A stretch of DNA of 64,000 nucleotides from Eledone cirrhosa (lineage: Eukaryota). The stretch lies in assembly GCA_964016885.1 (NCBI GenBank), contig OZ024743.1, positions 89,404,001 to 89,468,000 of the forward strand, in the 5' to 3' direction. Numbering within the stretch: position 1 is the stretch's first letter; every line of letters starts with the position of its first letter. The translations under genes were made by a program, and so were the position numbers. This document shows positions 32,230 through 63,117 of this stretch, piece by piece. The notes under the pieces are model-generated. The model worked only from the letters and a program-made list of their open reading frames with translations, was not told the DNA's origin and searched no databases.

Positions 32230-32712
32230 AAACCGCCACCCTCCTTCAAAAACGAAGGAGAGGCGGTTTTCCTTTGTGTGATAGCTATGGCGAAAGAGGT
32301 TGTATGGTGGACAAGGTTAAAAGGGCTGAGGTCAGACACCTTTCTCTCAGGCCAACAACTGATTCTTTTTTTCAAATACTAAAGAATCAGGATGAAGAGA
32401 GAGGTGCTGTACCCCAGCAAGTTTTATGAAAGGTGGGTGAAAGTGGCGAGAATGGCCCGAGTGAATGGGCCTTCTCTCTATATCAGCCTGTAGGTTGAGG
32501 AAAAAGAGGAAGATAGGAAAAGGGTACAAACTCTTCGTACTCCTGGAAATGAGGGTTGCACATTTTTTCGGGCGTATGTGTTACCCATATGGAATGTCTC
32601 CCCCTATTGGGGAAAATCGACTAATTTTAAAATTGCATTTGTGATAACATTTTACACGTTTTTATTGTATGTAAACTTCCCCCTTTGTATTTGTCCCTTT
32701 CTTTTGTGGCCC
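32226..32712 (+). mobile_element. Tx1/L1 LINE 3' end, copy 1
   Basis: IKPPPSFKNEGEAVFLCVIAMAKEVVWWTR plus 3' UTR and AATAAA; (TCTA)n on both sides. Confidence 0.9.
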
Positions 32713-32818: not shown

Positions 32819-34541
32819 GCCCTCTCTCCTCCCTTCTGTACGTACTGACTCTCGAGCTACTACTGCGGAAGTTGGAGCTATTGCAGGGCATCCCTTTGGA
32901 ACCGGGACTGCGAAAAGCGGCGTCGGCCTATGCCGACGACGTAACAGTAATGGTGTCGAGCACCTCGCAAATCGGGGAGGTCGGCACCTAACTGGAGGAA
33001 TATGAAAGGTTCACAGGAGCGAAGCTGAACCGGGACAAATCTGTCGGTTTGCAACTCGGAACGTGGAGAGGCAAACCGATGCCTTCCGATGACGTCGTCG
33101 GGCGCTGGACGGAAGGAACGGTAAAGCTGCTCGGGGTCTGGTTTGGTCCTGACCTCCAGGTGGAGAAGAACTGGAACGAGGTGACGGCCAAGGTGTTTGC
33201 GCTCACCCAGAAGTGGGCCGAGTGCAAACTATCCTTGAAAGGTCGAGCGGAGGTAGCGAACACTTTTATAGCGTCCGCCATCTACTACCGCTTGACCGTT
33301 GTGCCTTGTCCAGCCAAAACGCTCACCAAAATGGAGCGCGCGCTCTTCCAATTCCTTTGGAAGAAACGGGCTCCTTTGGTGAGAAGATCCATCTGCTGCC
33401 AACACCCTTCAAACGGAGGGCTGGGGATGCCGTGGCTGACGATGCGCAAACACGCGCTCAGGCTGCGGCACCTCCACGTATTCCTCACCAGACAACCGGT
33501 GTGGGCCCCGTTCGTGAGGCGAGCCTTCCCACGACTCGTCTCGCTGACCGAGCTGCAGACCTGGGTCAAGCAAAGACCGAGGAAAATGGGCGACTGGCAT
33601 ATCGAATGTGCTCAGGCGCTCACAGTCCTCTGGCAAACGGACCCGGCGATCAGTGGAGACTCCACTTCGACATTCTATAGAGGGTTGGTCCGCAGCAAGT
33701 ACGACTACACGCTCGGAGAAACTCTGGGCGTAGAGGAGGACGAACTGGCCAGTCTGTTCGGTAGGACCTTCCGCCCGGGACCAATGGACAACTTCCAAAA
33801 GTCCCTGGCCTGGCAGTGCTACCGAGGAGCTCTACCACTTCGAGACAAGCTCTACAGACACGGGCGCCCGAGTGGGACCCTTCGAAAAAGATCTGTTCGA
33901 GATGCGTTCGCGACGAGAAAACCGTCGCACACGCATTTGTACACTGCCCGGGCGTTACCGACCTGTGGGGCTTTGTAGAACGACTATTGTCGCGGGTGGG
34001 ACCAATCCAGTTGACCACCGAGTCCATTGTCATGATCAAACCACCACCCTCCTTCAAAAACGAGGGAGAGGCGGTTTTCCTATGTGTTATGGCTATGGTG
34101 AAAGAGGTTGTATGGTGGACGAGGTTAAAAGGGCTGAGGTCAGACACCTTTCTCTCCGGCGAGCAACTGATTCGTTTTTTCAAATATCATTTTGGAAGAA
34201 GAATCAGGATGGAGAGAGAGGTACTGTACCCCAGCAAATTTTATAAAAGGTGGGTGAATGTGGCAAGAATGGCCCGAGTGGTTGGGCCTTCTCTCTATGT
34301 AAGCCTGTAGGTTGAGGAAAAAGAGGAAGAGAGGAAGGGAGTACTCACTCTTGGTGCTCCTGGAGATGAGGGTTGTACATTTTTTCGGGGTGTGTAAAAC
34401 CCCTGTGTAACACCTCTCCCCTATTGGGGATTTCAATTGTTATTTGTTGTTTTATTAATAGTTTTATTTTCATATACCTGTATGTAAACTCCCCATTTGT
34501 ATTTGTCCCCTTCTTTTGTGCCCTTGTGGCTAATAAAGAAA
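32818..34541 (+). mobile_element. 5'-truncated Tx1/L1-clade LINE (RT to C-terminal CCHC), copy 2
   Basis: LSPLLY...AYADDV, KLLGVWF, LSLKGR, GGLG, CSRC...HAFVHC; one in-frame stop, a frameshift near 33880, ORF ends at 34310; AATAAA then (TCTA)n. Confidence 0.92.
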
Positions 34542-34575
34542 TTTATCTATCTATCTATCTATCTATCTATATATA

Positions 34576-34942
34576 ATACCACTTTGGAAGAAGAATCAGG
34601 ATGGAGAGAGAGGTGCTGTACCCCAGCAAGTTTTATGAAAGGTGGGTGAAAGTGGCGAGAATGGCCCGAGTGAATGGGCCTTCTCTCTAGATCAGCCTGT
34701 AGGTTGAGGAAAAGGAGGAGGAGAAGAAAGGAGTACAAACTCTTCGTACTCCTGGAGATGAGGGCTGCACATTTTTTTTCGGGCGTATGTGTTACCCATA
34801 TGGAATGTCTCCCCCTATTGGGGAAAATCGACTAATTTTAAAATTGCATTTGTGATAATATGTTACACGTTTTTATTGTATGTAAACTTCCCCCTTTGTA
34901 TTTGTTCCCTTCTTTTGTGCCTCTGTGGCTAATAAAGAAACA
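34576..34942 (+). mobile_element. Tx1/L1 LINE 3' end, copy 3
   Basis: Same C-terminus and 3' UTR, closer to copy 1 than to copy 2; (TCTA)n tail. Confidence 0.9.
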
Positions 34943-35624: not shown

Positions 35625-35964
35625 CATATGCAATTACCCAAGAAGAATTAGAACTGTTCTGTGACAAAGCAATCGACATAACAAAATGTATTTCACTATC
35701 GTAATTGGAGGCCTTAACGCAAAGATAGGTCAAGGAAAGGAATATTATATACATCAATTCTCGCAAGATGCAAGAATAACAAGGAAGAAGGTGAAATAAA
35801 TATCTGTCAAAGAGAATAAATAAGGAAAAAAAGAACGAAAGAATGAAAAAGACTTAGAAATATCAAATACATTCTTCAAATATAATAAACTGCAGAGATG
35901 AACCTGGATAATTGTAAACTAGGAAACATTGAGCAAAATAGATTACATTATGACAATCAAGACA

Positions 35965-36152
35965 AGGCGGGGGATTGGCACTATCGGTAGAGGGTCGGAC
36001 GCCATGCTTTGCAGCATAGAGTTATTGCCCTTTACGTTCTGAGTTCAAATCCCGCCGAGGTTAACTTTGCCTTTCACCCTTACAGGGTCGATAAAATAAA
36101 GTACCAGTAATGCCTTAGGATAATTGCTGGCCTTGTGCCAAAAGTAGAAACA
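35965..36152 (+). mobile_element. Nin/Deu-type tRNA SINE with ~17-bp TSD
   Basis: Full consensus flanked by attatgacaat(c/g)aagac on both sides. Confidence 0.88.
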
Positions 36153-36959
36153 ATTATGACAATGAAGACGTCGTTTTAAACATTGAGGTAATTAATATAT
36201 TCTAAGGCAGCAATCACAGAATGGTAAAGGCCAGGGTTCAAACTGACTTACAAAAGAATAGACAATAATTATTCCACTTCCGGAACAAACCAATAAGTAT
36301 CGCCAATAGCCAAATCGATCTTTTCTAAGCAGACCTTAACACCGCATCTGTCCGCCGGAGCTGGGGGGCGGCCAGCGTGTAGAACCCCATTTGCTCAGAT
36401 GGGGAGGGCGAGAGAGATGGAGGTGATGACAGTGGGAGTTCGGCCCTTCTGTGTTCGGACCTGGTGTACATCATATATATATTAAGATCTATCTTAAGGT
36501 GGTGGTGATTATTCTATCCCGCGTAACGAAATAGGCCACGTCCTCTGTACCATTTAGAAATGGAGGGAATAAATCGCCCAAACACATACTATCTGTCTCA
36601 CACAGAAATTTCCGACAACTTGCGATCTGATCCCTATTATAAACAAAAGTTTCCTGTTCGCCATTACCTACTAATAACATGTTTGCTAATGAATTTCAGA
36701 AGTCGGATAGAATGTCTCGCGGTATTCGTTCTGGCTCTGAGCTCAAATACCGCCAAGGTTCACTTAGCTTTCCATTATTTCCAGGTCAATAGAAAAGTAA
36801 CAGTCCAGTACTGGAGTCGATTTTTCCATTATATCTCTTTCTCTCACTTCTCTGGAAGAAATCAATTGTGTTCAAACCTGGAGAAGGAATGGGCTCGGAC
36901 AGGTTTAAATTCTTAACTTTTCCATTAAATTAGCTCGGTGAAATATGAACTTACAATTT

Positions 36960-37983: not shown

Positions 37984-38471
37984 AGGTGTATTATTGGTTG
38001 TGTCAAACGGCCCAATAAATTTTTTTTACCAGTATTAAGTTCTCCACGCTTTTGTATATCTCCAATTCCATTTATGGGAACAGCTACGGAGTATTTGTAT
38101 CAAAATAAAGATCCGAAGGCATGGTATAAATTTCCAATCATTTTAATCACGACACATGTTTCAATAAGAGATAGATCGATCGTGTAGCCATGATCGATTA
38201 TCACTGATCTCGTCAGGTGAAAATGAATTGTCTTCAAATCCTTGATATGAGGGAGAAAATTAACGATGTTCACTCACAGAGTTTAGTCCCTCATATGTGA
38301 GTGAACATCGTTAATTTTCTCCCTCATATCAAGTATTTGAAGACAATTCATTTTCACCTGACGAGATCAGTGATAATCGATCATGGCTACACGATCGATC
38401 TATCTCTTATTGAAACATGTGTCGTGATTAAAATGATTGGAAATTTATACCATGCCTTCGGATCTTTATTT

Positions 38472-38476
<5 letters not shown>
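37980..38476 (-). mobile_element. Penelope-like pLTR fold-back with a hammerhead in each arm
   Basis: ~180-bp arms 38098-38278 and 38298-38476; unique tail on the left; (TA)n on both flanks. Confidence 0.8.
38354..38427 (+). ncRNA. Type I hammerhead ribozyme (mirror copy on - strand at 38147-38220)
   Basis: tcac-CTGACGA-(long stem II)-GAAA-CATGTG-TC-gtga. Confidence 0.72.
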
Positions 38477-38537
<61 letters not shown>

Positions 38538-38865
38538 TTAAGTCGTTTTGGAAGCCTCGAAAATGCAGATGGGTAAATCTCCGGGTAACAAGATCCGGTG
38601 GTGGAGAGGGAGAGATGTAAGTGAGTGTACGTTGAGATGTGTAGCGTGTAGAAGAATGTAGGAAAGAGCGTAAAGGATAAAAATAATAACACGAGATAGA
38701 GTTACCTTGGGAGAGATTTAATTGTCCCTATATATTTCGGATTCACATCCATCAACTGGGGTTTTTTTCCGGGGGGTGTGGGGAGGGAGGTTGTCTGTCG
38801 GAAAGGTGCGAAACGTGTCCTCCGCTGTTCGTTGTTTTGAATATATATATATATATATATATATA

Positions 38866-40398
38866 ATGCCGAGGTGGCAACACCTATCGGGAAAATCTTC
38901 TTTAGACTCGTCGAAAAACACTTCCCACTACAACACCGCTACCACAACATAATCAACAAAAACACCATCAAACTCTCCTACAGCACCACACCTAACTTCG
39001 CACAAAACATCGTCTCCTCAAACAACAAAAAACTCAACCCCTATGGAAGAAATAACCTAGACATCAGTGGAGAGCCGACCACGAGGTGTAACTGCCCTGA
39101 TAGATCTACATGCCCCCTTAACAACAAATGCCGAGAACGTAACGTGATCTACCTCCAACAAAGCTTATATAGGATTAACCGCGTGTGACTTCAAGACCCG
39201 GCTCTACCAACACCGACATACTTTCGGAAACCCGGTCCGGCGACATGCCACTACACTTTCGGGCCACATCTGGGACCTCCAAGATAATAATATAACCTAC
39301 AATTTCACTTGGAGCTTACTGTCCAGAGCTAACTCTTACACGGGAGGACGCCGTCCGTGTAACTTATGCTCGGAGGAAACATTACAAATGGTGTTTTCCA
39401 AGGATCAACTCCTAAACAAGAAAGACGAACTGGTAACCGCATGCAAACACAGATTGCGTAGGACTTACCACGCCCTCAAACCCCATAGCGACCCGGGTGC
39501 GTAGACAAGGGCTGATACCCCCCCCCCCCCCACTTGCCGAATAAGATAGGGGAAACCCCAGCCTACATAGGTAGATGTATCTCTTTTCTTTTCTTTTCTT
39601 CATTGTCTTCTTCTTCCCTCTGTCTCATCCTATCACTTCCTTACACCCCCTATTTTCTTCCTCGTCTGCTTTTCCCCTTTCCCCTACCCCGATGCAGCCC
39701 ATCGGGCCTCTGTAGCATCAGTTCCCCCACCCCTGTAATTTTAAGATAGAATTGGCCGAATACGTTTTACTAACTACTTATAGCAGACGTGTTAAACCCC
39801 TTTTATTTTTGTATCAGTTTTGGTACTACTCAATTTCTACAAGTTTTTTCTATTCTCAACTTATTAACCTGTAATTGTAAGATAGCATTGTGAATTTTTT
39901 TTTTTAAATTCATTTCTCACTATCTAATTTTATATATATTTTTTTTTTCTTTCTATTATCTTTTATTGTCTCCTATTCTCATTCGATTTACCTGTTCTAT
40001 AACCTCCCTCCTCCACTTCATACACTATCCTTAGAATCTGCTGTATACATATTACTTTCAACGCTTGACCGCTCCACTCACTCCCTATTGTTCTACAGGC
40101 AAGTTCAGCCACCCCTACCCCCACCAAATGCCATGATAGACTTATTTGTGTTTACAACAAATTTTAACCAATCCTCTTGACAACTACAATCTTCCTATAT
40201 AAGGAAGTACCCTTTGACAAGTTCGGCTATTTATTCACCAGGCTAAAAATTCTAATTTAGTCCAGAAATAGCCGTCGAAACGGCTTGAGCTCTGCCGTCG
40301 GGGTCATACTTTTTCCTATTTCCCACTCTACTACTCTAAGTATTGAGTACTCTGGTGCGTTATGGTCCACCTGGTTCCTTACCACAATTCCTTTGTTA
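38866..40398 (+). mobile_element. 5'-truncated Penelope-like element (Neptune-type Cys linker, GIY-YIG endonuclease, 3' UTR/pLTR)
   Basis: FFRLVEKHFP...NTIKLSYS...CNC...CPLNNKC...NVIY, then after a frameshift YIGLT..FKTR..QH...LSGHIWDL...CNLC.EE...LLNKKDELVTACKH; begins and ends in (TA)n. Confidence 0.88.
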
Positions 40399-40716
40399 TA
40401 AATATATATATATATATATATCATATGTATATATACGTATGCATATAGGCATGACCTCAAAAGAAATGGTATTTGTGTTAGTGCATGTGTGGTGGTGGTG
40501 GTGGTGGTGGTGGTGGTGTGTGTATCAGCAGGGGGGGTAGGGTTAAGATGTGGAAGGTTTGTTTCGTGTCTCGGGAAGCTGGAAGTTGTGATGATGTGCC
40601 AGAAGTGATGAGAGAGCTTCAACAGACAAACCAAATGCCGGAGAGGGAATACATGTCGGCATGGGAAAGGTTGTTGAGAACAATATGTCTTAGAGAGAGA
40701 GATAGGAGAGGAGAAG

Positions 40717-41655: not shown

Positions 41656-41674
41656 TTATTATGTCTTTCTATTT

Positions 41675-41867
41675 AGGGCGGTGTATTGGCAGTATCGGTA
41701 GAGGGTCGGACGCCATGCTTTGCAGCAAAGAGTTACGGCCTTCTACGTTCTGAGTTCAAATCCGGCCGAGGTTAACTTTGCCTTTCATCCTTACGGGGTC
41801 GATAAAATAAAGTACCAGTAATGCACTGGGTAATTGCTGGCCTTGTGCCTAAAGTAGAAACAATTAT
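41675..41867 (+). mobile_element. Nin/Deu-type tRNA SINE
   Basis: Full family consensus. Confidence 0.88.
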
Positions 41868-42128
41868 GTCTTTCTATCTCTCTCCTCTCTCACCATCTCT
41901 CTCTGTCACCCTCTCTCTCTCTCACCATCTCTCTCTGTCTCCCCCTCTCTCTGTCTCCCTCTCTCTCTGTCTCCCCCTCTCTCTCCGTCTCTCTCCAATG
42001 TATTTTATATACATATATAAGAAGTATTAGATATCTATCTCTGTCTGTTATGGCATACCAGCTTTACACTGACGTTGAAATTGATAAAATAAAATAAAAA
42101 AATAATATACTCTAAGGTAAGAATATGA

Positions 42129-45052: not shown

Positions 45053-45840
45053 ATATATTGAGTTAAGAACTCAGACTAGTCTCTTACAATTAAATAGCTC
45101 TAAGAAAAAAGCTTTTCCGAGCCGTACAATATAATTGAATAAACAAGAGAGATGAACACTACCCAATATAGGTCTGTTATTTTTCTTAATTTTTCTTAAT
45201 TTAATATTTAAAGTTAAGTATAACAAACCATATTGCTGTAGTTAGTATTTTTTCACCCAACCAAATTTGGTCCTTACGATTCGAACACATATGTTTATAT
45301 TAGTGTTCATCTCTCTTGTTTATTCAATTATATTGTACGGTTCGGAAAAGCTTTTTTCTTAGAGCTATTTAATTGTAAGAGACTACTCTGAGTTCTTAAC
45401 TCAATATATATTTGTCGGCTCCATCATGTAGAGCTAATTTTTATTGTCCTGTCAGCCAGGCTGCTATTTTTAGCGGCAGGGAATTTCGTGACAAGCTGGA
45501 TTCCGAATGAAACGGGCGATAATTCATATCATACACAATTCATTCTCTAATATTTTTAGAAGTGAAAGGATCACTAATTTCTCAACAACTACTGAGGAGC
45601 AGAAAAACGTGAGAACTTCACTTAATAAGTCGTTGCGAAACAGTCTCCAATACTGTCTAGTTGTTACCAGGCGTTTTGCCCAATATAGGTCTGTTATTTT
45701 TCTTAATTTAATATTTAAAGTTAAGGATAACAAACTATATTGCTGTAGTTAGTATTTTTTCATCCTACCAAATTTGGTCCTTACGATTCGAACACATGTA
45801 TGTTTATATTAGTGATCATCTCTCTTGTTTATTCAATTAT
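45053..45840 (+). mobile_element. Penelope-like pLTR with fold-back plus tandem partial copy
   Basis: Inverted repeat 45053-45160 / 45301-45410; direct repeat ~45161-45330 / 45680-45840; intact hammerhead inside. Confidence 0.78.
45584..45665 (+). ncRNA. Canonical type I hammerhead ribozyme
   Basis: 8-bp stem I aacaacta/tagttgtt; CTGAGGA; stem II gcag...ttgc; GAAA; stem III cagt-ctccaat-actg; GTC cleavage triplet. Confidence 0.88.
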
Positions 45841-46672: not shown

Positions 46673-46987
46673 CATCATCATCATCATCATCATCGTTTAA
46701 CGTCCATTTTCCACGCTAGCATGGGTCTGGACGGGAATTGTCCCACTTGAGGCAAGATTGGTTGTCTTGCTCAGGACTGTCTGGCGAGTTTTCTACGACT
46801 GGATGCCCTTCCTAACACCAACCACGTTTACAGTGTGGACTGGGAGGTTTTTACCGTGTTACCTACACGGCCACATTACAGCATATAAAACACACAGTCC
46901 ACGCTGTAATGTGGCCGTGTAGGTAACACGGTAAAAACTTCCCAGTCCACACTGTAAACGTGGTTGGTGTTAGGAAGGGCATCCAGC

Positions 46988-46989
<2 letters not shown>
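46672..46989 (-). mobile_element. 5'-truncated Meta-domain-like SINE with (CAT)n tail, folded back on itself
   Basis: ggttggtgttaggaagggcatccag present in both orientations; arms ~46797-46883 and 46903-46989; (TA)n on both flanks. Confidence 0.65.
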
Positions 46990-50035: not shown

Positions 50036-50430
50036 TAGCACAATAAAGCAATGCAAATATCGGATAAGTAGCACTCAACAGTTTATAGGATTGGAGTATA
50101 AATAATATAAAATCAAAAGATGGTTAAAAGAGTTCCATGTATTTTATTATGCGCATTTCAAAAACAAATATCATCATGGGATGATATTTGCGTTCTCATC
50201 AGATAAAATAGGGAGACATGATATGAAGCTTAAAAAACACTTGCGAGCAGTGAAGTGTTAAATCACTACACTGTTGATTTAACACTTGCAAGTGTTTTTT
50301 AAGCTTCATATCATGTCTCCCTATTTTGTCTGATGAGAACGCAAATATCATCCCATAATGATATTTGTTTTTGAAATGCGCATAATAAAATACATGGAAC
50401 TCTTTTAACCATCTTTTGATTTTATATTAT
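50036..50430 (-). mobile_element. Penelope-like pLTR fold-back with a hammerhead in each arm
   Basis: Arms ~50103-50265 and 50275-50430; tail on the left carrying GAGTGCT (-). Confidence 0.8.
50322..50392 (+). ncRNA. Type I hammerhead ribozyme (mirror copy on - strand at ~50142-50210)
   Basis: tattttgt-CTGATGA-gaac gcaaatatcat cccata atgatatttgt tttt-GAAA-TGCGCA-TA-ataaaata. Confidence 0.8.
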
Positions 50431-50434
50431 ATAT

Positions 50435-50620
<186 letters not shown>

Positions 50621-51006
50621 AGGATTGGTGCTCTGAAATAGCGATGTATACATGGTCTTCTAAATGTTTTTAATTAAACATACAGTATATTACGAAATAT
50701 ACTATACATACATTCATGTATACATCGCTATTTCAGAGCACCAATCCGAAAACCTAATTTTTGCTGGACCGGCAATCGCTCTGTGTAATCAGCTCTTGAT
50801 TATTACTGGAATTCTATAAGAATCCAGCTTCTATAATTTTCAGCGAAAGCAGGGGAGTATGTAGCTCTCATGAGCGCCAACCAGCGTGAACCAGACTGTC
50901 AGCTTCTCTCCCTTCTTTCGCCGAAAAGAAGTAAGTGGCATAGCGTATGGTCTTCTAAATGTTTTTAATTAAACATACCGTATATTGCCAAATATACTAT
51001 ACATAC

Positions 51007-51068
<62 letters not shown>

Positions 51069-51860
51069 AATCGCTGCTTTCACCCTTAACGGGATCTTCT
51101 GAAACTAAAAAAGTCAATCTGTGAACGCAGAAGTAAATATTTCAAAAAACGTTGCTCTACGGTTCTTATATATTTGATATAAATTTATCCTTATCGAGCC
51201 CTCTTTGGATTTTAGTCTTCAAATTTATTATTATATGAATAAATTTAGTCCTTCATCAGTGATCTTCCAGCCTTCATTGGTATTTCATCGCTTTAAAGAC
51301 CATATACCTCTGGTTGGTGCGAGCAACGGCTAAAGAAAGTTGTTGGGACACGTAAATAGGGGAAACGAGCGAGACAGTAAACAAACAAAGATGGTAATGC
51401 AACGAAAAGTGAGGAAGAAGGAGTCAAGTCCCTGAAATCGATGAACATAAGTTCTGTGAAATCGTGGACGAGAGAGAATAAAGACCATCCAATCTGGTCG
51501 AAATATATATAATAGACGTATTTATATATCACAATCTGAATTTAAATTTTGATGGTTTTTCATTCATTGAAATGGTGAAGAACAACTTGCATATATTTGA
51601 CTATTTTGACATAAATTGTTTAGAAACGTTAAGCTACTGACTACTGATGTTTTATCTCATCTACAACAATACACCAACTTACAGAATCACGTTATTTATT
51701 TATATCTTATTAAATGTTACAAGTCACCCCTTCTCCCTCTTGGAAAGTCGCAGAATATATCATGCGATTAACTGAAATTAACTTTATATATAATTAAATG
51801 TGAGCTACTCTCTGTCTATCTGTCTGATGTCTGCCCCTCTCTCTCTCTCTCCCCCCTCTC

Positions 51861-52501: not shown

Positions 52502-52699
52502 GCTGTGTGTGTGTGTTTGTGTGTGTGTGTATTCTAGTTGAGATTAATAACGTCATTATTCAACTTAGGAAAGTAGAACACACACACGAATGTAAACATA
52601 CATACATACACATATACACACATATATATATATAATTTGTTGTATTATGGTACGTGTGCTTCTTTCAATTGGCAATATTGGCAACATGACCGCCGAATA

Positions 52700-52830
52700 T
52701 AATTGTTTCTACTTTAGGCACAAGGCCAGCAATTACCCAGTGCATTACTGGTACTTTATTTTATCGACCCCGTAAGGATGAAAGGCAAAGTTAACCTCGG
52801 CGGGATTTGAACTCAGAATGCCAAGGGCCG
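52700..52830 (-). mobile_element. 5'-truncated Nin/Deu-type SINE
   Basis: Reverse complement of the family core and tail. Confidence 0.8.
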
Positions 52831-52899
52831 TATTCAGCTTCTATTGTTTTTAAAAGAAGTGTTATTGGAACACAATTTTCATTCCATTTCTCATGTTTG

Positions 52900-53706
52900 A
52901 GACCACAGAATATAATGACCTCAACTCATCCCCGAATTACCCCGCCTTCTCCAACCACCAGAAACCACCGAATATAATGACCTCAACTCATCCCCGAATC
53001 ACCCCACCTTCTCCAACCACCAGAAACCACCGAATATAATGACCTCAACTCATCCCCGAATCACCCCGCCTTCTCCAACCACCAGAAACCACAGAATATA
53101 ATGACCTCAACTCATCCCCGAATCACCCCGCCTTCTCCAACCACCAGAAACCACCGAATATAATGACCTCAACTCATCCCCGAATCACCCCACCTTCTCC
53201 AACCACCAGAAACCACCGAATATAATGACCTCAACTCATCCCCGAATCACCCCGCCTTCTCCAACCACCAGAAACCACCGAATATAATGACCTCAACTCA
53301 TCCCCGAATCACCCCGCCTTCTCCAACCACCAGAGACCACCGAATATAATGACCTCAACTCATCCCCGAAACACTCCACCTTCTCCAACCACCAGAAACC
53401 ACCGAATATAATGACCTCAACTCATCCCCGAATCACCCCGCCTTCTCCAACCACCAGAGACCACCGAATATAATGACCTCAACTCATCCCCGAAACACTC
53501 CACCTTCTCCAACCACCAGAAACCACCGAATATAATGACCTCAACTCATCCCCGAAACACTCCGCCTTCTCCAACCACCAGAAACCACAGAATATAATGA
53601 CCTCAACTCATCCCCGAATCACCCCACCTTCTCCAACCACCAGAGACCACCGAATATAATGACCTCAATCATCCCCGAATCACCCCGCCTTCTCCAACCA
53701 CCAGAA
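52900..53706. repeat. 62-bp minisatellite, ~13 units
   Basis: Unit gaatataatgacctcaactcatccccgaatcaccccgccttctccaaccaccagaaaccacc. Confidence 0.95.
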
Positions 53707-54096
53707 AACATATAAATACAACAGTTTTACAAGTACAGTCTGCTTTTTTCGTGATTCCTTTTGAATAAAACCATTCTAGTCCAGTAGAAGCCATTTCTAT
53801 AATAAACATGGTGCTTACACGCTACTAATGTATTGAGTACCATACTAACTGTGGTTATCCCCGATTGAAACCGAGACTATCTCCCCCCCCCCTCTCTCTC
53901 TCTCACACACACACACTTCTTACCTTAAAGTATGGAGAACTAAGTTAAATAATGGCCTTACTAGTCTCAACTTGTATGAAACATCTTATCTCCCGCCCTC
54001 TCTCTATATATATGTGCGTGTGTGTGTGTGTGTGTGTGTGTGCGTATATATGTATGTGTGTGTGTATGCGTGTTTATGCATTAACATTATTTATTT

Positions 54097-54283
54097 GGGC
54101 CGTGAATTGACAGTATCAGGAGAGGGTCGGCCATGCTTTCCAGCATAGTTATGTCCCTTTACAGTCTGAGTTCAAATCCCGCCGAGGTTAACTTTGCCTT
54201 TCATCCTTACGGGGTCGATAAAATAAAGTACCAGTAATGTACTGGGATAATTGCTGGCCTTGTGCCAAAAGTAGAAACAATTA
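54097..54283 (+). mobile_element. Nin/Deu-type tRNA SINE
   Basis: Full family consensus. Confidence 0.85.
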
Positions 54284-54450
54284 TTTATTTGATGTGTCGT
54301 TGTTTGTTAGTGAAGTAGTAAAGGTTACTTGGCCATTTCTACTAACCGAAGAGTTGTGCATTACGTTGGCTACACAACATAACTTGTCCGTATATAAATG
54401 ACTGTTACTCAGAAGAGTTCGTCTTGTCCACAATACAGACGTATCTAGAA

Positions 54451-55161: not shown

Positions 55162-55193
<32 letters not shown>

Positions 55194-55196
<3 letters not shown>

Positions 55197-55359
55197 AACC
55201 AGTAAGACCCCGACAGCTGAGCTCAAGCCGTTTCGACGGCTAAACGGCTTGAGCTCAGCTGTCGGGGTCTTACTGGTTCCTATTACCCACTCTACTACCT
55301 CAAGTATTGAGTACTTTGGTGCGTTATGGTCCACCTGGTTCCTTACCACATTTCCTTCG

Positions 55360-55362
<3 letters not shown>
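55194..55362 (+). mobile_element. Fold-back of Penelope 3'-end family A
   Basis: Same sequence as 13411-13535 and 40255-40398. Confidence 0.8.
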
Positions 55363-55395
<33 letters not shown>

Positions 55396-56905: not shown

Positions 56906-56972
<67 letters not shown>

Positions 56973-57690
56973 ACACCGTCCTGACCAAAATGTTCGAATG
57001 GAACAGCGTGCTCGTGAAGTTAACGTGTAAAAGGCCGAGGATTGCATTGACACGTGTACCGTTAAAATAGTTCTCAGGGAGATTCAGTGTGACACAGCAT
57101 GTATCGAGGCAGACCATAAGTATTGCATTGACACGTGAACCTTCAAAATAGTTCTCAGGGAGATTCAGTGTGACACAGCGTGTGTCGAGGCAGGCCATAA
57201 GTATTGCATTGATAGGTGTACATTTAAAATAGTTCTCAGGGCGATTCAGTGTGACACAGCGTGTGTCGAGGCAAGCCATAAGTATTGCATTGACACGTAC
57301 ACCTTTAAAATAGCTCTCAGGGAGAGTCAGTGTGACACAGCGTATGTCGAGGCAGGCCATAAGTATTGCATTGATATGTGCACCTTCAAAATAGTTCTCA
57401 GGGAGATTCAGTGTGACACAGCGTGTGTCGAGGCAGGCCATAATTATTGCATTGGCACATGCACCTTTAAAATAGTTCTCAGGGAGATTCAGCGTGACGC
57501 AGCATGTGTCAAGGCTGGATCTTTGGATTACAGGTACAATTTATTTTTGCCGGTTGAGTGGATTCGTGTAATGTGAAATAAAGTGTCTTGTTCAAAGATA
57601 GATACAACGTGCCATTGATAACCGAACTTAGCAAATTAGGGAACGTGAGGAGAACACTTTAACAACTAAGCCAGGCCCCTTCACAGCGGC
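56900..57690 (-). mobile_element. CORE-like SINE with (CAT)n tail whose body contains an 81-bp minisatellite (~6 units, 57041-57515)
   Basis: gtgaaataaagtgtcttgttcaa core (reverse complement); an 81-bp period equals 27 codons, which explains ORF 56806-57441. Confidence 0.65.
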
Positions 57691-57769
57691 CATGCTATTC
57701 CTATGGAGAAGAGAAACCCCGGTATTGCTACCTTTGATGGGTCAATGACACACATGTCTTTAAATTATT

Positions 57770-57955
57770 TGTTTCTACTTTAGGCACAAGGCCAGCAATA
57801 ACCCAGTTCATTACTGGTACTTTATTTTATCGACCCCGTAAGGATGAAAGGCAAAGTTAACCTCGGTGGGATTTGAACTCAGATCGTAAAGGGACGTAAG
57901 TATGCTGGAAAGCATGGCGTCCGACCCTCTACCGATACTGCCAATCCACCGCCTC
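57770..57955 (-). mobile_element. Nin/Deu-type SINE flanked by a 66-bp direct repeat
   Basis: 57704-57769 matches 57956-58021 with one mismatch. Confidence 0.85.
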
Positions 57956-60617: not shown

Positions 60618-60969
60618 TGTATGTATGTATGTATGTATGTATGTATGTATCTATGTATGTATATATATGTATGTATGTGTGTGTATGTATGTATATTTGT
60701 GAGTATGTATACATGAATATATGAATATATGTACGTGTGTGTATATATGTACGTATGTATTTAAGGTTCATCGGGGCGCCGTCATAGCATACGGCGTATC
60801 ATGGGCACTCTAAACCTAGTGGAGCCACCCCCATCCCCAGGTCTAACTACTATCGAAGGAGAGAGAGAGGGGGGGGGGGGGGGGTCAAAGAACTATAGAG
60901 GAATAAATGAAATGCAGTGTAGTTCTCAGTGGGATTTGAACCCAGACAACAGTTTATATATATATATAT

Positions 60970-61333
<364 letters not shown>

Positions 61334-62521: not shown

Positions 62522-62527
<6 letters not shown>

Positions 62528-63117
62528 TAAATTTAGTCCTTCATCAGTGATCTTCCAACCTTCATTGGTATTTCATCGCTTTAAAGACCATATACCTCTG
62601 GTTGTTGCGAGCAACGGCTAAAGAAAGTCGTTGGGACACGTAAATAGGGGGAACGAGCGAGACAGTAAACAAACAAAGATGGTAATGCAACGAAAAGTGA
62701 GGAAGAAGGAGTCAAGTCCCTGAAATCGATGAACATAAGTTCTGTGAAATCGTGGACGACAGAGAATAAGGACCATCAAACCTAGTCGAAATGTGAGTGA
62801 GGAAAGAATCTCGCACAGGTCAAACAGGAGGAAGTAGGAGAGGGAGTAGCAGAGAGTGAGTGAGTGAAAGTGTGAGGAAGAGGCTAACAGAGAGAATGAC
62901 TAGTAGAGGGAGTAAAAGGAAGTGAGAGATACAGAGAAAAGAGGACGCAGTAAGAAAGAAACAGACGGGTCACAGTCTCGCTCGTTCCCCCTATTTACGT
63001 GTCCCAACGACTTTCTTTAGCCGTTGCTCGCACCAACCAGAGGTATATGGTCTTTAAAGCGATGAAATACCAATGAAGGCTGGAAGATCACTGATGAAGG
63101 ACTAAATTTATTCATAT
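62522..63117. mobile_element. Fold-back cassette (~140-bp arms); same family as 51234-51503
   Basis: 62522-62663 is the reverse complement of 62977-63117; contains GAAA-N23-CTGATGAAG. Confidence 0.8.

Follow-up and report, generated by a model that had tools for sequence, protein, structure and literature searches.

The short fold-back cassettes of the Eledone cirrhosa genome are almost certainly linked to a Penelope-like element (PLE) family, and their geometry suggests how they arose. Probably each was made singly, as a head-to-head pair of element end pieces, by priming on both target strands and run-off of the enzyme at a capped RNA start. The window analysed here is a 64,000-nucleotide stretch of contig OZ024743.1, in which one element and three cassettes all sit within (TA)n. 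A 16-base motif has six mismatch-free matches in it (13442 minus, 13469 plus, 40270 plus, 55226 minus, 61082 minus and 61126 plus) against 0.04 expected, and none of 100 shuffles reaches six. The preliminary description had proposed that the element end recurs as free palindromes. Alignment of the four copies bears this out, the end at 40258-40399 recurring at 13408, 55192 and 60965 with 89-93% identity (BLAST: 40258-40396 versus 61109-60971, 92.8%; 40278-40396 versus 55242-55360, 89.9%; 40263-40317 versus 13462-13516, 89.1%). To call them the same sequence was too strong, as the copies are similar by alignment but not identical and the cassettes come from sister subfamilies. The main features are as follows.

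38839-38865, strand not assigned: target run of (TA)n where the 5' truncation of the element lies; the inverted partner arm is absent there.
38866-39504, plus strand: open reading frame (ORF) remnant, 5'-truncated, with a frameshift at about 39140-39150; it holds the end of the reverse transcriptase (RT) thumb region, a CxCX5C linker plus, C-terminally, a GIY-YIG endonuclease with CxxC and CxH and without CCHH.
39505-40399, plus strand: 3' UTR and pseudo-LTR of the approximately 3.1-kb unit, assigned on a basis that includes the tandem at locus L251.
13408-13535, plus strand: short fold-back cassette of a sister subfamily; most of its tail was lost by a deletion between two 9-base repeats.
55192-55364, plus strand: short fold-back cassette of the same sister subfamily as 13408, with the full tail.
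60965-61175, minus strand: short fold-back cassette of another sister subfamily, with the tail on the left.

The ORF remnant opens right behind the (TA)n run and lies in two frames (38865-39152 and 39136-39501), which match the C-terminal 224 amino acids of the open frame of locus L253 with identities of 85% and 92%. Its translation contains no RT core, and its Pfam match to GIY-YIG is weak (E 0.035, below the cut-off). Because it is split over two frames, starts at a (TA)n run and lacks the RT core, the window copy cannot be autonomous; it is a dead fragment. Of the proposed tie to an autonomous Penelope-like retrotransposon, the link to the ORF is real, but the copy at hand is not the autonomous partner.

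That link was followed through the genome (3.0 billion bases). In a sample of 29 other loci with the end, drawn from the 40 scored of 672 candidates, the tailed arm continues upstream into the GIY-YIG ORF in 13, and ORF sequence lies on the inverted arm in five more; the remainder are truncated in the 3' UTR. This end is also present in all five RT-bearing loci that were extended, the longest of 25. The same ORF thus precedes the fold-back sequence in other genomic copies, and the chance adjacency that the preliminary description had named as the outcome against it, an ORF found elsewhere without this end, was not seen. Its label of "3' end" is accurate in that the sequence terminates the element, but it is equally the 5' start, running on into the ORF in L249 and L251. 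A search with the RT part returned relatives whose single frame encodes RT motifs along with the same endonuclease (L249, L250, L253 and L124). The tandem at L251 has a unit of about 3.1 kb, and its tail runs on into the next ORF; the tail in tandem copies is the start of the next unit. The sister subfamilies behind the cassettes have long copies of their own, which encode the same endonuclease (identity about 87-91%). No intact ORF was present among the genomic copies read. Eight match clusters lay in a blind sample of 399.8 kb, and one of these had a long arm, numbers too small for statistics.

With RT and GIY-YIG in one ORF, the family has the coding make-up of an endonuclease-bearing PLE, as judged from translated sequence. 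This assignment rests on motifs and homologues, since Pfam gave no relevant family for three long natural ORFs and four homologues and only the E of 0.035 for the window piece. LRWR and SDKTGN are present in L111, L115, L118 and L125. Among the best 120 of 1,991 homologues, most of them unnamed, RW[KR] occurs in 99, DKT in 118, CxCX5C in 110, CxxC in 115, CxH in 114 and CCHH in none. These motifs (an RWK/DKT region, CxCX5C, CxxC and CxH, with CCHH absent) appear to place the element in the Hydra clade. The Naiad clade, with an N-terminal endonuclease and no hammerhead, was considered and rejected, the endonuclease being C-terminal here. The non-coding structure is that of a PLE as well: a pseudo-LTR arising from partial tandems, an inverted 5'-truncated copy and a one-sided tail. 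Insertion into (TA)n, a Hydra feature, is evident on both sides of the cassettes: ATA directly abuts the short end in 79 of 99 and the tail end in 78 of 99. Fragments of other Hydra-type families adjoin this element at L036 and L043; there, long low-complexity stretches, Asn-rich in L043, separate RT from endonuclease and resemble inserts described in the accessible part of PMC3846280.

The Hydra clade, as described in the accessible sections of Craig et al. (2021; PMC8557442), likewise has a single ORF with RT and C-terminal GIY-YIG, the RW(K/R) and DKT motifs, the CxCX5C linker and CxxC plus CxH without CCHH, together with (TA)n targets, a hammerhead, tandem and inverted 5'-truncated copies and a one-sided tail. 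Previous work has thus far described tails and hammerheads as well as (TA)n targets and inverted copies with 5' truncation. The differences lie in the unit (about 3.1 kb here, generally below 3 kb there), the tail (about 80 bases versus 30-40) and the numbers: tens of thousands of arms, mostly in body-less fold-backs, against the few Hydra families treated in those sections, whose account of the clade does not include the start-site run-off proposed here.

The pseudo-LTR holds a predicted type I hammerhead with the core boxes and three helices. Its parts, and the sites within and beside it that bear on the cassettes, are the following.

40200-40319, plus strand: predicted type I hammerhead, from fold prediction and subfamily comparison.
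40210-40213 with 40300-40303: stem I.
40214-40220: core UUGACAA, the U3-A8 form.
40221-40232 with 40266-40276: stem II, with a long loop II between.
40277-40280: GAAA; 40280-40298: stem III; predicted cut after C40299.
40257-40263, plus strand: initiator-like site; A at 40259 is the arm stop and the putative transcription start (+1).
40315-40319, plus strand: CCTAT, end of the tail-less arms at +61, the putative second priming site.
40320-40399, plus strand: tail of about 80 bases, ending in GTTAT at about +141, the putative first priming site.

Across subfamilies the core reads UUGAnAA (position 7 being C, A, G or U), GAAA and GUC, and one subfamily has C3 opposite A8. In the nine rows compared, stems I, II and III are paired in 100%, 93% and 100%, and the core is kept at all positions but 7; the covariation count of these rows, which are too alike, showed no compensatory change. 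A search of 38800-40450 with Rfam did not detect the hammerhead and returned six chance-level matches. The accessible text of Cervera and de la Peña (2014; PMC4209133) likewise describes type I hammerheads in the pseudo-LTRs of Penelope-like elements, including the U3-A8 core, reported for the Schistosoma Cercyon variant. The motifs treated in that text and in bioRxiv 10.64898/2026.07.22.740005, as far as both are accessible, are minimal, whereas the one predicted here has a stable five-pair stem III and a 33-base loop II. The same two sources note motifs lying close together on opposite strands.

Other repeats were recorded in the window. Just upstream of the element, 38092-38482 is a separate palindrome with arms of about 190 bases (96%) and hammerhead-like boxes on both; it probably belongs to a different Penelope-type family, one with arms that extend past the ribozyme. 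A palindrome at 50097-50435 lies in (TA)n and has CUGAUGA and GAAA boxes on both arms, and no hammerhead box was found in the palindrome at 14797-15466, which has 328-base arms including mirrored microsatellites and a 14-base centre. Inverted repeats of other families occupy 45059-45403, 46796-46989, 50619-50750 and 62525-63117, and 62520-62790 matches 51232-51502. A dispersed, partly tandem SINE-like repeat of about 190 bases is found at 8335-9354, 24897-25088, 28224-28410, 35963-36160, 41670-41873, 52697-52832, 54083-54292 and 57763-57954. At 32992-34310 lies a LINE-like fragment of ORF2 whose match to zf-RVT is weak (E 0.0007); it is accompanied by repeated 3' pieces (32230-32647 and 34575-34940). 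Minisatellites occur at 16448-17972, 52775-53818 and 56957-57596, their periods being about 51, 62 and 81 bases. The near-100% duplication of 763-3044 and 3540-5813, flanking a gap of 200 N at 3272-3471, is likely an assembly overlap.

The cassettes are lopsided, one arm stopping at the equivalent of 40319 and the other bearing the tail of about 80 bases to 40399. Counted by a tight pattern of exact matches, there are at least 15,251 short fold-backs in the genome, and a reversed control gives none. The exact arm motif occurs at least 64,562 times, whereas arms that retain the whole of stem II are far fewer (at least 4,117), both being lower bounds from exact matches. In contigs from two public runs of one sample, possibly the assembly's own, depth rises about 15-20-fold over 40238-40293, and loose ends occur at 40259 and at 40319; since these contigs give the same depth step, the abundance of cassettes is no assembly artefact. 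No RNA run was among the public runs listed as containing the sequence. One tailed and one tail-less arm are present in 99 of 103 cassettes. Among 50 consecutive cassettes 49 were single-tailed; the one with two tails was excluded from further counts.

Arm ends fall within about ten bases of A40259, inside hammerhead loop II. The surrounding heptamer fits the initiator consensus, and initiator-like sequence is kept across all subfamilies. Some arms pass this point, and they do so in company: 42 of the first 100 passing arms are in head-to-head pairs, where at most 6.4 would be expected if arms were independent. Because independently stalling arms would seldom give paired passing arms, the stop belongs to the template. 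A further mark of the stop is an extra base. The genome was searched for joints with a pattern that allowed only G or A before A+1, supplied by neither the partner arm nor the parent; it matches 120 joints, and among the 100 listed the base, counted by hand, is G in 95 and A in five. A script run on the first 30 joints gave 29 G and one A, on 14 tailed and 15 tail-less arms, and three loci (L319, L323 and L328) have the extra G on both arms. CpG decay would reduce such a count of G, not increase it. In long arms the base before A+1 is T in 80, C in eight and G in none (n = 88). Viewed on the cDNA, the first non-templated base past A+1 is C in 19 of 32 cases, compared with 19 of 70 where arms end elsewhere (Fisher p 0.002); this count was made after merging of duplicates, and of its nine G rows at A+1 two arose through faulty parsing. 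Joints with an unambiguous G are scarce (120 against at least 15,251 cassettes), most joints being trimmed. An extra G at the 5' junctions of full-length L1 has been attributed to the cap in the accessible text of PMC11702581. A stop set by the template, a non-templated C or G at that very A and the L1 precedent lead us to infer a capped RNA start at 40259.

The same stop also coincides with the 3' foot of a hairpin predicted within loop II, and it could be argued that two-site priming occurs on a long RNA on which the enzyme stalls at the folded hammerhead, the stalled cDNAs then being joined. The scatter of the ends over about ten bases would suit a stall, as would the behaviour of long arms, which runs contrary to a simple start-site model: of 13 arms that span the start of the ORF and extend past the fetched flank, none ends at +1, three stopping short. 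The other ten, however, pass through the very structure that should arrest them. Stalling is moreover an event of the single arm, which gives no account of the paired passing arms or of a non-templated G at one exact position, and the hairpin is the inner helix least conserved across subfamilies (84% paired, with six of seven pairs broken in some rows). We consider a stall unlikely. What the 13 long arms do require is that a second, longer class of template be assumed. At L255, L260, L271 and L283, arms from inside the ORF stop at or after +1 while their short partners end at +1, and these four short partners fit run-off at the RNA start. At L255, L283, L260, L265, L267 and L268 the 3' ends of arms fall inside the ORF start, 340-410 bases beyond +1, and hint at further minor priming sites. 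In fold-backs of a more distant sister family (L100:1255, L035:5414, L129, L132 and L141), the register in which the arms stop before GAAAC appears to be the same.

An RNA end at +1 could also be produced by a nuclease cutting in loop II instead of by transcription. At RNA ends of any kind, capped or uncapped, C may be added by reverse transcriptase, so that the G would be a terminal addition by the enzyme, and the sharp stop, the coupling of the arms and the added C would all be accounted for without a promoter. Against such processing, the A at which the end lies belongs to an initiator-like sequence that every subfamily retains, and the ribozyme does not make this end, as its predicted cut lies 40 bases away. 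We find it doubtful, to much the same degree as a stall, and regard run-off at a capped RNA start as likely on the sequence evidence.

Both arms of a cassette match one source variant: of two diagnostic bases, the first agrees between the arms in 98 of 99 cassettes and the second in 52 of 52 (64% expected for the latter), and across eight diagnostic bases, in the 52 of 99 cassettes where the pattern is readable, they are identical in 41 (26% expected). Arm concordance is the same for one RNA copied twice and for two RNAs of one locus. It would also follow if the cDNA folded back to make the second arm, or if antisense RNA primed itself, as proposed for rotifers in the accessible part of PMC3846280, and some joints do have short inserts copied from nearby arm sequence. 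Yet the inverted arm is the longer one as often as the tailed arm (19 and 19 of 49 cassettes, 11 being equal), at L003 it reaches more than 1 kb beyond the tailed arm, many joints have no loop, and the extra G is found on either arm or on both. Inverted arms with sequence missing from the tailed arm largely refute snap-back, which we hold to be very improbable; arm symmetry and the G on either arm favour two sense-primed cDNAs over self-priming.

Joints are blunt or overlap by one or two bases in 33 of 49 cassettes and contain inserts in 16. The cassette at 60965 has its own joint with a few inserted bases, and that at 55192 has an asymmetric centre, part of which is missing. That the cassettes are instead unit copies of palindromic masters, a non-autonomous family of MITE-, SINE- or retrozyme-like kind, as was at first suggested by 498 loci with the exact 27-base centre of the 13408 cassette and 39 other loci that fully match 109 bases of it, was dropped in view of the varied joint spectrum and is hardly credible, because this centre makes up about 3% of the 15,251 fold-backs, occurs on several source variants and in both orientations to the tail (31 versus 28, one unclear; n = 60), as expected of a common joint, and is accompanied by many other joints within the same subfamily. 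Secondary copying of cassettes may still contribute a minor share. The fixed interior and symmetric ends of a MITE or other palindrome copied as a unit are not seen, the joints varying and the ends being asymmetric. Nor are the cassettes non-LTR retrozymes, which in the accessible text of bioRxiv 10.64898/2026.07.22.740005 have tandem units and whole hammerheads, because they are inverted, not tandem, and contain only the 3' half of the ribozyme.

We therefore return to two sense-primed cDNAs that run off one RNA start. An internal promoter of the pseudo-LTR, as reported for Drosophila Penelope (PMC2377424), would start a capped RNA at A+1 (the equivalent of 40259) within loop II. Lacking the 5' half of the ribozyme, the 5' end of this RNA would stay uncut and keep both priming sites. 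The RT-endonuclease would cut both strands of (TA)n, one target end priming at about +141, the end of the tail, and the other at +61; that priming took place at two sites is very likely. Since just 61 and 141 bases of template lie upstream, both cDNAs would reach the RNA start and run off there, in many cases with a C copied from the cap, and their ends would be trimmed by a few bases and joined head to head through end-joining. Long insertions such as the window element would stem from less frequent templates with further sequence upstream (RNA that is read-through, tandem or circular), and priming at the same two sites on these would yield two long arms or one. A circular template has been proposed in the accessible text of PMC4209133. 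Taken as a whole, a promoter inside the ribozyme, coordinated two-site priming, most insertion attempts ending as paired strong-stop-like cDNAs and productive copies made through a separate template seem to us a reasonable, mildly favoured picture.

Several of these steps have parallels. For PAc, a Poseidon element of the green anole, the accessible part of Frangieh et al. (2024; PMC11167929) reports in vitro cutting and extension of both target strands, two neighbouring internal RT starts by which the tail is delimited, a template hammerhead that stays uncut and a predicted dimer. PAc showed no difference in start site between strands in vitro, whereas 99 of 103 cassettes here have one of each. 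It also primed without homology, while both sites here end in TAT beside (TA)n, and run-off at a capped end with head-to-head joining is not among the results in that part of the paper. Rotifer Penelope insertions, in the accessible text of PMC3846280, likewise show head-to-head inverted pseudo-LTRs, an optional tail, an initiator-like sequence in the pseudo-LTR and junction palindromes; there they were explained by self-priming on an antisense template. In L1 twin priming (PMC11702581, accessible text) a second RT is likewise primed on the reciprocal target end and an extra G occurs at blunt 5' junctions, but the L1 arms span adjacent parts of the RNA, whereas here both arms cover the same part, begin at fixed sites and reach the RNA start. 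In the open-access literature searched we found no account of cap-marked run-off fold-backs in PLEs, and the accessible part of the Octopus vulgaris repeat annotation does not mention such palindromes.

The origin of the tandem and inverted ends of PLEs is called open in the accessible passages of PMC8557442 and PMC11167929. To this question the genome of E. cirrhosa offers thousands of products of fixed geometry, with one start site per strand, arms of one source and a cap-like G at the stop. Our reading yields a predicted transcription start for this element and would explain body-less inverted pseudo-LTRs as run-off products and not as a non-autonomous family. As hairpins the cassettes are near-perfect, number at least 15,000 and have arms of about 55-60 bases; their transcripts, if any are made, would be double-stranded RNA substrates, and palindromic repeats are heavily edited in a frog, according to the accessible text of PMC5625713. 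If the proposed mechanism is true, these more than 15,000 cassettes are a fossil map of the 5' end of a transcript and evidence in vivo of coordinated two-site priming.
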